DNA of 64,000 nt from Eledone cirrhosa (taxonomy: Eukaryota): contig OZ024743.1 in the NCBI GenBank assembly GCA_964016885.1, positions 121,024,001 to 121,088,000 on the forward strand, read 5' to 3'. How positions within the stretch are numbered: position 1 is the first letter of the stretch; every line of letters starts with the position of its first letter. The position numbers were made by a program, and so were the translations under genes. The notes beneath the pieces are model-generated. The model was not told the DNA's origin and did not search any database. It saw only the letters and a list, made by a program, of their open reading frames with translations. Of this stretch, positions 18,028-56,922 are shown piece by piece.

Positions 18028-18189
18028 TATATATATATAATAAGGAGTTGACGGACCCAGCATATTCATCAATGCCAGGACCGGCTGTATCTCAGCGTAC
18101 TCAATGGGCAATGTAAGATACTTTCCCAGAGTATACACATATTTATTCACTTCAATATAACACACGTAAAACGGGTGCCTATAATAGTT

Positions 18190-18297
18190 CTCGGACTCGA
18201 GTTTCGGCCGCACTTTATGCAGCAGTAAGGTGCACTGCACCATCCGTCTGCATATACTATGCAACAATACATCGGCTTATGCGGCTTCATCAGCGGG
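18190..18297 (-). ncRNA. Type I hammerhead, canonical core, within a pLTR-like segment (about 18041-18450)
   Basis: Minus strand CCCG-CTGATGA-A GCCGCA...TGCGGC C-GAAA-CTCGAG-TC-CGAG; palindromic stem III, GUC site. Confidence 0.8.
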
Positions 18298-18469
18298 TAT
18301 CGCCTAATCAATAACCACTCGATTGACAGAATCCAAGCCCCAGCCCATGCCGATCATGAGTGTTTATGACAACCGACACGGTAAAGCGACTAGCTACTGG
18401 AATCCGATACAACTCTGTTCACCGACTAGCCACCGATTTACACATTTTACGTATATATGTATATATATA

Positions 18470-19422
18470 TGAGCTTCGTCCGTTTCGACAGCTAGATCCG
18501 AACGTGGTTTCAATCTTCTCAACCATTGAGCCGCTGTCACGTGACAGATGGCTCAATGTGAGAGAGGGGATGCTACGTCCATATTTGTTTTTGACAATAA
18601 AAAAAACTATTTAAAAATATATATATATATATATATATATATATATATATATATATATATATATATATATATATATATATATATATATATATATATGTAT
18701 ATATATATATATATATGTATATATATATATATGTATTATTATTATTATTATTACTAGAGGGTCCGACTTCATGCTTTGCATTACTGTTACGTCCCTTTAC
18801 GGACTGAGTTAAAATCCCGCCGAGGTTAACTTTGCCTTTCATCCTTACTGGGTCGATAAAATAAAGTACCAGTAATACACTGGAGTAATTGCTGGCCTTG
18901 TGCCAAATGTAGAAATAATTATTATTACTATTATATTATTACTATTTTGTTTCTCATTTGCGACGGACAGTTTCATATCGGCTCCAGAAAGTTGGTTATT
19001 TTGAGTTGTTTTGAAGTGGAATTAATTGAATATGTTTGTTACGAACTATATATAAGTTGCTATTCATTTCCTCGAGAAAAGGCGACGCCATAATATTATT
19101 TGAGCCTTCGGCACAAATATTTGTACTTTAATTTTTAAAATAGTTTTTTTCTGTCAAAAACAAATATGAACGTAGCATTCCATCTCTCACATTGAACCAT
19201 CTGTCACGTGACAGCGGCTCAAAGGTTGAGAAGACTGAAACCGCGTTCGGATCTAGCTGTCGAAATGGCCGGAGCTCAGCCGTCGGGGGTCCTGATTCCT
19301 GATACCAAAGATGATTGAGTCGCGTATGTTGAGTGCAGTTCCTACTAATGCATAACGGCTAACTATAGGGAATGACCAGTTCTATCCAGTGGTGAACCAC
19401 TAGTTATATGAACCAAACTATT
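18470..19422. mobile_element. pLTR-like inverted pair (18470-18618 minus, 19130-19422 plus) carrying the 3' half of an HHR
   Basis: ~145-bp inverted match; GTCGAAATGGCCGGAGCTCAGCCGTCGGGG resembles the HHR 3' half at 22232-22262; no intact core with stem I found. Confidence 0.6.
18755..18945 (+). mobile_element. 5'-truncated tRNA-derived SINE
   Basis: Core and tail match the consensus. Confidence 0.88.
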
Positions 19423-20206
19423 CACACACACGCACACACGCACACACATATATATATATGTGTGTGTGTGTGTAAAATATATACACACACACGCGCACAC
19501 ATATCTATATATATATAAAAACGAGGATGTGTGTGTGTGTGTTTGTATGTGTGTATGTGTGTGTGTGTGTGTGTGTGTGTGTCTGTGGACAACTTTGGAC
19601 AGTTAAGGCTTTTACAATTCCCAACCGAATTTGACCAACTTTTCTGTGCACGTTGCACCTATCGCTAAGATGGTCACATCACAAACATTCTCCTCTCTTA
19701 TTCTCTCTCACACACACACATACACACACAAAGACTAGTTCTAACACGAAAAGAACATCTATCCCCACATTTACGTATAGACATATCTTCTCACACTCAC
19801 ACTCACACACACATACTTACACATTCACACATTCTCCCACACACTTAAACAGACAGGTACTAAAAAACCTTTTAAAAGAAGACTACTCTTTATCCACCTA
19901 ACCTTAACTCTTTGACATTAGAGATAGAACAGATACTCTATACGATTTCCTGCCAGCATGACTTGGCAAGCTATTTAGAACACTAGTTTAACCGCTTTAC
20001 TTCCCTCCGAAGAAGAGATATTATCTCGAAGATTAAGGACATTTAAATAAATCTAAGGTAAAAGACTAATTGTCAACAATATCTTTTGCATTTGCATCTT
20101 TTATTCTATGCCCATACCTGCATTGTTTTGGCTTTACAAATTCAAACGTTTATATATATATATATATATATATATATATATATATATATATATATATATA
20201 TATATA

Positions 20207-20377
20207 TAAAGAATGAATAATAACAGGTAGACATCATAAAAAGGTAATTTATTCCGTGTGCTTACAAGTGTTTCCACGGTGGTACTGCAGCCTAGTACCT
20301 AGTAACCTCTTACCGTACGTCAACCATATCCAGTGTAGTAATTAACCATTACTACATCTTGGATAATCCTATACCTA
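20207..20377. mobile_element. Deleted fold-back copy of the 41450-41906 pLTR family, inside (TA)n
   Basis: 20207-20297 matches 41450-41539; 20301-20376 matches 41830-41905. Confidence 0.85.
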
Positions 20378-54055: not shown

Positions 54056-54933
54056 ATATATGTGTATGTATCTGTATATGTATATATGGGGGTATATGTG
54101 TATGTGTGGATATAGATATATATGGATATGTATATATATGATTATATGCATGCGTGTGGATGTGTATTTAGGTTTGCATCTATTTGCACGTATGTATATT
54201 TTGGTTGGATATCAATATAACTGTACCTCTCTCTATATGTGGTGTGAATATGTGCACTCTGTAGACTATGAAATTTATGTGTTTTAACTATGCCAACATG
54301 TACTTATCTGAGTTTGATTGTTTATGCATAAACATACTTAGTAATATTTTAGAGCGTATAGTATGTTATATTATACTGAGTGCAATTTAACACACCGTAC
54401 TATATGCTGTTGGTTAAGTTGTATATTATCGCATTACTATATTACATTACGATCTGAGTTCAAATCCCGCCGAGGTTGACTTTGCCTTTCATCCTTACGG
54501 GGTCGATAAAATAAAGTACCAGTAATGAACTGGTGATTTGCTGGCCTTGTGCCTTAAGTAGAAACAATTATCTTATTGTAATTTTCATCTTTTAATATAC
54601 TATCTTTCCTAGCCATAACATTAATTTATATTCACCTTAAAACTCAATACAACACTAATCAGCATTTATTTTGACATTCCTTTTAAATTCACTATACAAG
54701 ATACATTCAACTATCGGTTTGACAATCCCCTTCCTTCCTAATAGATTTTATGCCATTTCTACTAACACCTTTCAACCATTCCTTTAAAAGGGTCATGACC
54801 TCAACTAAAGTGTATTACTTTTCATCTTAACACCATATGAAAAAAACAATTTAATTCGTTAGTTCTTCAACTACCTCCAAATATGGACATGATACTAATT
54901 CTGAGTAAAATTGTTATTGAATAAAATTATTAT

Positions 54934-55065
54934 TGCTTTTGAAAACAGCTGGTGATATGCATGTAAGTAAATATTCTCTCTATCTGATAGTTTGTAAACT
55001 TACATAGATCAATAACTGAGTATAAATACAATGTATTATCACCATCGAGAAACGATCGTAAAGCA
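54934..55065 (+). ncRNA. Type I hammerhead, U3-A8 core, long stem II (mirror copy on minus strand at 49791-49922)
   Basis: TGCTT-TTGAAAA-CAGC TGGTGATA...TATCACCA TCGA-GAAA-CGATCG-TA-AAGCA. Confidence 0.78.
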
Positions 55066-55436
55066 GTGAAGTATATCTCTAATGACTTGATTGTTTATTT
55101 CATTGTGTTAACTTGTATATATATATATATATATATATATATATATATATATATATATATATATATATATAAATATATAAAAATATATATATATATATAT
55201 ATATATATATATATATATATATATATATATATATGTAGATAAATCTACCAAGAGTTTACGGTAGTGTCCAATCCGTATGAAGAACTCAATGTAATCCGGA
55301 TATCATGGAAAGAAGAGATGCAATGAAATATCACTTTCGGTGAAAGATAAACGGAATACAGAGTCAAGATAAAATATTAAAAAAATAATGAATAAAACAA
55401 TGAAACAGTTCCTTATATTAAACAAAAAAAGTTCAT

Positions 55437-55580
55437 TATTTAACGATCGTTTCTAGGATATATATGTGTTAGAATTGGCATGCATATTCAACAGATCTAT
55501 GTACAAAATTATACAAAATTATACAAACTATCAAGATTAAATATACATACCAACACATATATATGCCGTCTTCAGAAATA
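55437..55580 (-). ncRNA. Type I hammerhead, canonical C3-G8 core, long stem II, in pLTR fragment 55235-55580
   Basis: Minus strand TATTT-CTGAAGA-CGGC ATATATATGTGTT...AACACATATATAT CCTA-GAAA-CGATCG-TT-AAATA. Confidence 0.8.
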
Positions 55581-55652
55581 ATATATATATATATATATAT
55601 ATATATATATATATATATATATATATATATATATATATATATATATATATAT

Positions 55653-56922
55653 AATATTATAATGAAATGACAGGAGGCTGGATTTGTGTAAATCCTTGAA
55701 AGGTTTATTATACTATGATCATTTCAATGACCGGGTTCCGTATGAATCCGGTGATATCATCAGGTATTCGAAATATAATACGTGAATGTAATAGATAAAA
55801 TCCATGGGGCTGAAAATCGAGGACTCGAGGGCGACCGCTATTCTGTTCCTTCAACCTCAGCCGGTCGCCCTGGAGTGACGTGGCGAAAGTTTATAGTATG
55901 CTACTACCGGTCAGATAAACGAAAACAGAAAGGGATGGGAGCATAAGTTAACGTCGATCTCATGACACAAGGTAAAAGAAAGAAAGGAAGGAGAGAGAAG
56001 AAAGGGGAAGAAAGAAGAAGAGAAGCCAGGGTTAATGTCAGCTAAAAGAAGAAAGGCAACTACTACCGGTCAGATATAGGCAAGCAAGAGGGGGAAGGAA
56101 GATAAGTCTGCGGGAGGAAGACAGGAAGAGAGGAGAAGAGAAGGAAGAGAAGAGAGAAGTAGAAAAGTAAGGGTTGATGGCTACAAGAAGGAAGATAGAA
56201 AGAAAGAGGAAGAAAGGTCGATATTAATGTCAGACCACAGTCAAGCCAGGAGTGGCGCGAGAAAATGTTCACAGGGACCCGCATCTTAGCAGAGGTGAAT
56301 ATATTGGGAGTCAGTGTGTTACAGTGTTTAGACTTCTAGGATGAAGTTAAAAAAATTAATAATCAATATTCAATATTAAAGAGGTTAGAAAATTTAAAGT
56401 TCAACAGTTTAACATTTTATTATATAATAGTTCCGATTTGTTCTTTAATTTAAAGGTACTATGTGGCGGTTAAAACACCGGCCGCGCCTCGGGCCCCATG
56501 GCGAATTAAGCTACGCCGAGTATTTTCATTTACTGAAAGAAGGGGAAATTTATTTTTCCAAGCACTCCAGGTGAGCTCGTTCGCCAGGGAGCTGGTCGCG
56601 CCGCCATTAAAACCCACCCAACAGTCCGACAGAAAGTTGGAACTTTAAACTTTCACGTATTATATTTCGAATACCTGATGATATCACCGGATTCATACGG
56701 AACCCGGTCATTGAAATGATCATAGTATAATAAACCTTTCAAGGATTTACACAAATCCAGCCTCCTGTCATTTCATTATAATATTTAACTCCGTAATAGC
56801 ACCACCAACTACAAAAACAAAGACGGTTGAACTGCTTTACGTTGAGTACTCTCTATATTATTACATTACGATTGACCATACGGAATAGACCAGCTCTATA
56901 CAGTGGTGAACCTCAAACCTGA
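55653..56922 (+). mobile_element. Non-autonomous PLE-like element with inverted pLTRs (55653-55786 / 56652-56785), in (TA)n
   Basis: Perfect ~134-bp inverted repeat containing an HHR; noncoding purine-rich interior. Confidence 0.88.
56671..56728 (+). ncRNA. Minimal type I hammerhead, canonical core (mirror copy on minus strand at 55710-55767)
   Basis: ATAC-CTGATGA-TATC ACCGG...CCGGT CATT-GAAA-TGATCA-TA-GTAT-AATAAA. Confidence 0.85.

Follow-up and report, generated by a model that had tools for sequence, protein, structure and literature searches.

What defines the 3' ends of the ribozyme-bearing units that are found along a 64,000-nucleotide (nt) stretch of the Eledone cirrhosa genome (contig OZ024743.1, positions 121,024,001 to 121,088,000; hereafter the window)? 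The window is AT-rich with many (TA)n tracts, and its units are truncated copies of Penelope-like retroelements (PLEs). A preliminary description had pointed to the word TTGAGTNC, found downstream of hammerhead ribozymes at nine sites, and proposed it as a conserved cis-signal in the terminus of the pseudo-long terminal repeat (pLTR). The signal is supported and extends far beyond the window, though not as a linear 8-mer, given that TTGAGTNC is the 3' strand of a base-paired bulged helix that is present twice and that marks an end lying 5' of the helix. Genomic copies end a few bases 5' of the first hairpin (H1, short end) or of the second (H2, long end), usually in (TA)n. PLEs, their hammerheads, their targeting of (TA)n and their tail are already known; the hairpin is a real and conserved cis-element of this class, from aquatic animals, and is apparently undescribed. 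Papers are cited by accession.

The bulged hairpin in the window

Taken by itself, TTGAGTNC is barely enriched, since its 12 matches compare with 6.65 expected and 4 of 100 shuffles reach 12. It is the position of the sites that is not random. The coordinates and strands of the nine sites were all verified (minus-strand figures are the low coordinate), and complete hammerheads at 18293 (minus), 22175, 39262, 44876, 49917 (minus), 55575 (minus) and 56675 precede seven of them; at 43603 the ribozyme is truncated inside stem II and at 19329 only its 3' half was found. Three matches absent from the earlier list, at 13380, 35599 and 43114, have no hammerhead upstream. The distance to the element end, described as 45-85 nt, is 51-81 nt at eight sites, while 19329 differs by the reference point, lying about 70 nt from the end that it has in common with 56842 and about 95 nt from its own (CA)n. 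A microsatellite junction is usual at the end, with the exception of 39391, which has no microsatellite there. The block common to 19329 and 56842 was recovered with 73% identity over 95 nt. The view that the families are unrelated was overstated, given that 22301, 39391 and 43603 form one family (C1-C3, 85-89% alike), 49649 and 55282 (units E and F) are 70% alike, 56842 and 49649 are weakly similar over their last ~50 nt (expectation value, E, 0.003), and 19329 and 22301 (units B and C) have hammerhead stem III in common.

The units are named A (18097, minus), B (19329), C1-C3, D (56842), E (49649, minus), F (55282, minus) and G (44995), to which H (41604), I (42054), J (7059) and K (53551) are added, all without the exact word. 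A tolerant descriptor of type I hammerheads gives 20 matches at a score of 7.5 or more and 15 at 10.5 or more, the latter versus a shuffle mean of 0.15; two strict descriptors retrieved just 1-2 motifs in the window. Units C and E have a U3-A8 core, a variant described in PMC4209133. The window hammerheads are unlike the published Hydra-clade ones in that U3-A8 cores are frequent and stem II inserts reach ~100 nt. The inserts of 80-115 nt at 18194-18293, 41604-41707, 49796-49917 and 55442-55575 far exceed the published minimal PLE ribozymes.

The preliminary description had overlooked a 5' arm, 10-72 nt upstream, with which TTGAGTNC forms the helix RCTC-Y...R-TH-GAGY, and with it the variants at 41827, 7213, 7328, 39686, 43813 and 32378 (minus). 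In RNA letters the layout is an RCUC-Y/R-UH-GAGY helix with a two-base, U-led bulge, followed by a conserved unpaired (A)CUNU. The arm was sought by keeping the word fixed, shuffling the upstream segment and requiring a perfect four-base arm with 2-5 closing pairs. Eight of the 10 units tested have both the arm and the upper helix (p=0.0004-0.011 for each unit), the exceptions being B, with a wobble arm, and C2, with a changed arm; in reads and contigs of family C, ACTC makes up 99% of the depth where the C2 copy deviates. A refined descriptor, tuned after the data were seen, gives 13 window matches versus 1.3 +/- 1.3 in 30 shuffles, 11 of them within named units or beside (TA)n. A lax descriptor applied across the whole window shows no enrichment (18 versus 7-18 in shuffles). 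The reading of TTGAG as a hairpin loop, which holds only for C, E and F, was abandoned for the bulged helix. The features of the units are the following.

7195-7218, plus: unit J hairpin H1, lower stem changed on both sides (GTTC/GAAC); E=0.23; hammerhead at 7059-7129
7313-7333, plus: unit J probable H2, one mismatch; E=0.07; repeated at 6790-6810; not formed in the minimum free energy (MFE) fold
18099-18132, minus: unit A hairpin H1, ACTC arm, 4-bp upper helix, TT bulge, GAGT; p=0.0004 for arm and helix
18293-18194, minus: unit A hammerhead, upstream of H1; the element ends at (TA)n 18039
~19262: GAAA of the unit B hammerhead, only the 3' half being found; inverted copy 18470-18617 ends within stem III
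19295-19334, plus: unit B hairpin H1, wobble arm ATTC; fails the strict descriptor
22175-22257, plus: C1 type I hammerhead by descriptor, U3-A8 core, long stem II
22283-22306, plus: C1 hairpin H1; p=0.002, covariance model E=1e-4; end at (TA)n 22355
32373-32406, minus: hairpin a few nt past a (TA)n tract, no hammerhead upstream, perhaps a tail-only copy; E=0.4
37138-37597, minus: C2 inverted 5'-truncated copy; (TA)n end 5-6 nt before the H1 arm (short end)
37590-38594, plus: Hydra-clade PLE open reading frame (ORF), broken C-terminal part; predicted reverse transcriptase (RT) thumb, CxCX5C linker, GIY-YIG endonuclease
39262-39347, plus: C2 hammerhead, U3-A8 core, ~670 nt past the ORF stop
39373-39396, plus: C2 hairpin H1; arm ACGA here versus ACTC in the family majority
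39666-39691, plus: extra hairpin GCTC..TT GAGC; E=0.003; 77 nt before (TA)n, with a degenerate hammerhead-like stretch upstream (by eye)
41604-41707, plus: unit H hammerhead by descriptor
41769-41832, plus: unit H hairpin H1, TA bulge; p=0.011; two inverted copies stop 1 nt short of the arm
43585-43608, plus: C3 hairpin H1; p=0.004, E=2e-4; has a rival local hairpin in the MFE fold
43795-43818, plus: weak extra hairpin, one mismatch; E=0.15; follows a hammerhead 3' half, with (CA)n ~50 nt further on
44876-44923, plus: unit G hammerhead by descriptor
44981-45000, plus: unit G hairpin H1; p=0.0006, E=2e-4; inverted copy 44249-44368 stops right at the arm (-1 nt)
49651-49733, minus: unit E hairpin H1, long insert; p=0.008; inverted copy 54567-55118 stops 4 nt short of the arm
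49917-49796, minus: unit E hammerhead by descriptor, U3-A8 core
55284-55364, minus: unit F hairpin H1, long insert; p=0.003; hammerhead 55575-55442
56675-56724, plus: unit D hammerhead by descriptor
56788-56847, plus: unit D hairpin H1, 5-bp upper helix; p=0.001; inverted copy 55653-55789 stops 2 nt short of the arm

Weaker hairpin-like matches at 31587-31619 and 34384-34410 have no hammerhead near. Unit B (19133-19290, 18470-18617) carries a long near-perfect hairpin before the hammerhead 3' half, and no catalytic core was found there.

Hydra-clade elements inside and outside the window

C2, the only window copy with an ORF, is by its predicted protein a Hydra-clade PLE, given its C-terminal GIY-YIG endonuclease with the CxCX5C linker that is the mark of this clade (PMC8557442). 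Its ORF remnant (37590-38594) gives tblastn E values to 2e-57 and a profile match probability of 99.9, and the endonuclease piece (38064-38594), with the linker present, has 4134 relatives at E<=0.001. An assignment to Neptune was dropped for Hydra after the endonuclease relatives were examined. The clade inserts into (TA)n and has 3' hammerheads (PMC8557442, supplement) as well as inverted truncated copies; likewise, type I hammerheads in the 3' region, (TA)n insertion and inverted 5'-truncated copies were found in the window, where such a copy lies beside most units, the usual PLE arrangement. The RWK and DKT motifs of the N-terminal half have been removed by truncation in the window, and are present in the 23 long outside ORFs that were aligned. 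A coding role for the motif was ruled out, as it lies ~800 nt beyond the ORF stop in C2. Older remnants of Hydra-like endonuclease and RT lie at 51679-51870 and 29823-30389 (tblastn E 1e-4 to 1e-7).

Pfam gave no match for the four ORF pieces of the window, and no relatives were returned by a word-based homologue search or by a search of viral contigs. Rfam at the gathering score, run on the window and 14 of 99 outside loci, gave no match for hairpin or hammerhead, and on the window returned microsatellite noise and one tRNA-like match only.

The outside loci were collected with a 15-protein alignment and comprise 79 metagenome loci, taken from the best 80 of 522 confirmed matches, and 20 genome-bin loci. 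The latter (L080-L099) are Hydra-clade animal retroelements within bacteria-labelled assemblies, the bins of symbionts from sponges, corals and bivalves, and probably represent DNA of the hosts. A hammerhead follows the ORF in 62 of the 99 loci, spanning 35 families. The strict hairpin descriptor matches 25 of the 46 loci that have 100 nt past the cut site, and 14 of 24 families, whereas the controls give a shuffle mean of 0.48 (max 2), 1 on the reverse strand, 0 in the upstream region and 1/29 far downstream. With a sequence-only rule the hairpin is found after the ribozyme in 32 of 49 loci, and many of the remaining 17 end in (TA)n before reaching the hairpin position.

The hairpin shows both conservation of the helix and covariation of its upper pairs. 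In the 30 inserts that are distinct, upper pairs 1-3 form in 30, 26 and 24 cases versus 22.8, 15.4 and 13.8 when permuted, the fourth being at chance, and the result is unchanged with one copy per family (18). The covariation in the 30-row alignment exceeds 500 of 500 shuffles, and RNAalifold returns the identical seven pairs, the lower four invariant. Lower-stem pairs are changed by window variants alone, such as unit J. The bulge letters, left free by the rule, are TT in 19, TC in 6 and TA in 5, with T first in 30 of 30, followed by ACTNT. No consistent pairing beneath the four-pair stem was seen in the outside hairpins. A covariance model built from the outside rows alone recovers C1, C3 and G in the window (E ~1e-4) and 39656 (0.003), with J and others weak, and misses units A, B, D, E, F and H, whose inserts are long.

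Among six published Hydra consensus ends, GCTC..TT/TA GAGC occurs in Hydra-2_Amil and Hydra-2_Ajap, and twice at the 5' end of Hydra-1_Ajap. In the supplement of PMC8557442 the Naiad/Chlamys text holds 3 scattered 9-mer matches versus 4 at Hydra termini, line-broken words being missed; the supplement of PMC3846280 gave no hits. An extra (T/C)TGAGT word lies 20-30 nt past the cut site, before H1, in L040, L067 and L077, and also in Hydra-1_Amil; it is perhaps a third, smaller copy. The word count is marginal and several window families are related, which would suit chance combined with the shared ancestry of a few families. That explanation is scarcely credible, given that the 5' arm, covariation, doubling and end mapping lay outside the word first noticed and hold in at least 18 outside families, and that the hairpin is also found in published coral and sea-cucumber consensuses.

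Two hairpins and two copy ends

The tandem order is hammerhead, TA-rich stretch, H1, spacer, TA-rich stretch, H2 and ATG. At least two 3' arms are present in 26 of 29 leaders (outside loci with an ORF start), the arms of H1 and H2 being 57-82 nt apart and the last arm (H2 bulge) lying 21-67 nt before the ATG. H2 retains the four-pair stem and the C-G closing pair (19/21).

Short ends lie at H1. In the window, six inverted copies belonging to units C, D, E, G and H were aligned, and every one of them breaks off between -1 and 6 nt ahead of the H1 arm. Outside the window, 8 of 12 pairs stop 3-6 nt ahead of H1, with one inside H1 and three uninformative. Long ends lie at H2. Among the 41 loci with a 3' H1, 6 continue into the next ORF and 2 reach contig ends (at -3 and 3), while all eight true mappable ends are -4 to 4 nt from the H2 arm; the inverted copy of unit J ends at 6146, 2 nt before its probable H2 arm. 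Both classes are seen in the reads of family C, where (TA)n ends at 39366 (short; 244 contigs, 3626 reads) and at 39441-39449 (long; 247 contigs, ~8200 reads), 75-83 nt apart, with smaller loose-end rows at 39353 and 39434. The fact that ends lie just 5' of H1 and of H2 means that the optional PLE tail corresponds to H1 plus spacer, and that the 45-85 nt of the preliminary description is the H1-to-H2 distance. The elements have the optional extension that defines a PLE tail; its length (57-82 nt outside, 75-83 nt in family C) is not the 30-40 bp of the known one.

Of 53 hairpins, 85% have TAT/ATA among the 10 nt that precede the arm, versus 19% downstream. Such a TA-rich stretch ahead of each arm could be read as a TATA-like box which, with an initiator-like CACTNT behind it, would form a DNA promoter of the next tandem unit; a promoter or initiator for that copy was also offered in the preliminary description. 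The letters behind GAGC resemble an initiator consensus, an internal promoter is known for D. virilis, and TATA/initiator-like pLTR words have been proposed for rotifer PLEs (PMC3846280). Nonetheless, the fit is poor and a promoter very improbable, because inserts of 6-72 nt leave no fixed spacing, the inserts pair and covary, the would-be +1 A of the consensus is G or T in five window units, and ends at both hairpins are unexplained.

Two arrays in the window resemble non-LTR (long terminal repeat) retrozymes, which are ORF-less tandem units with type I hammerheads, proposed to be PLE-derived (PMC7229834, bioRxiv 10.64898/2026.07.22.740005), and in whose accessible texts no such hairpin was found. 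At 6147-7428, the ORF-less 523-nt tandem unit J (probable H2, 240 nt, hammerhead, H1) stands with an inverted copy and appears to be a retrozyme-like PLE derivative; it differs from retrozymes in spanning under two units and in its minimal-type ribozyme. At 53198-54067, a palindromic/tandem array of a ~330-nt unit has a U3-A8 hammerhead (53551) and no clear hairpin. Repeat copies at 5258-5435 and 5770-5945 end in CTGATGA after a CCGAGAC word, with no GAAA downstream, and possibly represent a half-core motif of another PLE clade. A large inverted duplication (49738-51400 and 52568-55118, 98% in parts) contains unit E and adjacent microsatellites.

The other repeats of the window are an abundant ~190-nt SINE-like (short interspersed element-like) repeat, found at 1556-2635 and at ~ten further places as far as 60998, with 95-98% identity between some copies; a tRNA-like head of a SINE-like repeat at 57507-57564 (Rfam 29.2 bits); a GC-rich satellite at 17-1313 with 16- and 22-nt subunits and a 38-nt period; and another (TA)n-flanked family, apparently LINE-like (long interspersed element-like) ends and unrelated to the hairpin, at 17584-18039, 52116-52580, 40515-40808 and 59906-60055.

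Proposed use of the hairpins and its meaning

The position of the copy ends agrees with the recognition by RT or endonuclease that the preliminary description had offered. As judged from the genomic ends, the PLE protein probably binds a hairpin, with reverse transcription beginning in the TA-rich bases immediately upstream. The RT-endonuclease would bind the hairpin in its own RNA, nick (TA)n DNA and prime complementary DNA (cDNA) on the TA-rich bases directly 5' of the bound hairpin, which would therefore not be copied. Priming before H2 would give the long end carrying H1, that is, the tail, and priming before H1 the short end; use of both hairpins on opposite target strands, perhaps by a dimer, would leave the short inverted copy that usually stands beside a long direct one.

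The closest comparison is the anole Poseidon element PAc, whose protein in vitro cuts AT-rich DNA and extends both strands, a dimer being predicted, and for which two internal start sites 3' of the hammerhead bound the tail and an unidentified motif within the first 172 nt of the ORF is needed (PMC11167929). As in Hydra elements, the PAc tail is an optional 3' extension which lies beyond the hammerhead and occurs at just one of the two ends; two end positions delimit it, and a protein-binding motif is presumed nearby. It differs in being 30-40 bp long and inside the ORF, with priming in an AC-rich stem-loop, whereas the Hydra extension, of ~57-82 nt (~75-150 for window units), does not code, and one and the same conserved hairpin lies on the 3' side of each end. 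By this analogy the Hydra hairpins are probably the same kind of motif as that of PAc.

It is unlikely that the hairpins are instead read as DNA, in single-stranded cDNA or extruded duplex, by the GIY-YIG endonuclease cutting the adjacent TA-rich stretch; cutting at the two ends would then resolve a longer tandem intermediate, and these cut sites would double as insertion targets in the element's own pLTR. Ends beside both hairpins would be equally expected, H1 or H2 is directly preceded by a (TA)n tract or a 5' junction in L003, L026, L067, L087 and at 32406 (minus) in the window, the D. virilis tail is needed for endonuclease recognition of plasmid DNA (earlier work cited in PMC11167929), and the tail has been attributed to endonuclease resolution (PMC8557442). 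Set against this are the anole tail, which in vitro is the stretch between two RT start sites on RNA (PMC11167929), the 6-72 nt arm spacing, which excludes a fixed duplex site, and five G-U against no A-C in upper pairs 2-3, which favours the sense strand.

The position of the H2 bulge 21-67 nt before the ATG would also suit control of translation of the uncapped, ribozyme-cut RNA, as a cap-independent start or self-repression, and type I hammerheads in viral 5' untranslated regions do promote cap-independent translation (PMC13725137). The clustering of ends there would then merely reflect pairing of (TA)n targets with the TA-rich flanks. This is improbable, given that other TA-rich leader spots are unused as ends among the copies examined and that the ORF-less unit J still has hammerhead, H1 and probable H2.

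How the protein would recognise the hairpin can be put more tentatively. The bulge could bind arginine as in TAR/7SK, from a conserved R-x-R stretch before WFNPP, a speculative possibility that is less likely than not. The arginine sandwich of TAR and 7SK stem-loop 1 has a paired purine, a U-led bulge, then G and an A-U pair, as in R-UH-GA, the TAR residues being A22, U23, G26, A27-U38 and G28 (PMC6189040). This geometry is found in 30 of 30 H1, GAG being demanded by the search rule and the closing pair and U not. The Hydra bulge has another orientation to the loop and another host RNA, and with so short a motif convergence is possible. Two arginines ahead of the WFNPP motif are kept in Hydra proteins, the one at -4 in 71/82 and the one at -2 in 70/82. 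It is more doubtful still that paired TAR-like arginine-binding bulges dock a dimeric telomerase-related RT, one subunit per hairpin, priming on (TA)n just 5' of each.

Several observations weigh against reading the hairpin as a docking site in Hydra-clade RNA. The ORF-less units A, B, D-H and J are linked to Hydra by the shared hairpin only, and the outside set is made of top matches with kin included. The lower four pairs never vary in that set and could thus be a sequence signal, and the G-U count noted above fixes the folding strand only weakly. The next pairs of H2 do not covary (9/21 versus 7.9), and a different hairpin is favoured in the MFE fold of family C. The hairpin is weak in Hydra-1_Amil, has no clean fit in Hydra-1_Obim and Crog, is single in L015 and is missing from the hammerhead units at 42054 (which ends 71 nt past the cut site) and 53551. 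The inverted copy of unit B ends in the ribozyme and L083 inside H1, and 25 of the 41 long-end loci have no close leader for mapping. The basic R-x-R stretch may be a nuclear localisation signal instead.

No description of the hairpin was found in the literature or Rfam, in a search that excluded subscription papers, Repbase notes and figures. The accessible parts of PMC8557442, PMC11167929, PMC4209133, PMC3846280, PMC7229834 and bioRxiv 10.64898/2026.07.22.740005 contain none, the Hydra-clade paper (PMC8557442) mentions no hairpin or second RNA motif there, and 'hairpin' and 'stem-loop' have 0 hits in its supplement.

The hairpin bears on how the PLE enzyme chooses its RNA and on why there are two copy ends, with the tail, the one in vitro study having narrowed binding no further than to 172 nt. 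Being small, doubled and covarying, it predicts both ends within a few bases across many families and gives exact mutations to test. It also fixes the boundaries of Hydra units, aids the spotting of ORF-less derivatives and may reveal which retrozymes Hydra elements can move. PLE RTs are the closest kin of telomerase, which makes an RNA element that lies 3' of the first templated base relevant to the origin of telomerase-like template use. If the paired TAR-like docking bulges are true, they would give PLEs their first defined RNA recognition element, one rule would explain the tail, the two end classes and the inverted copies, and a ~35-nt portable signal would set the cDNA start on any RNA.

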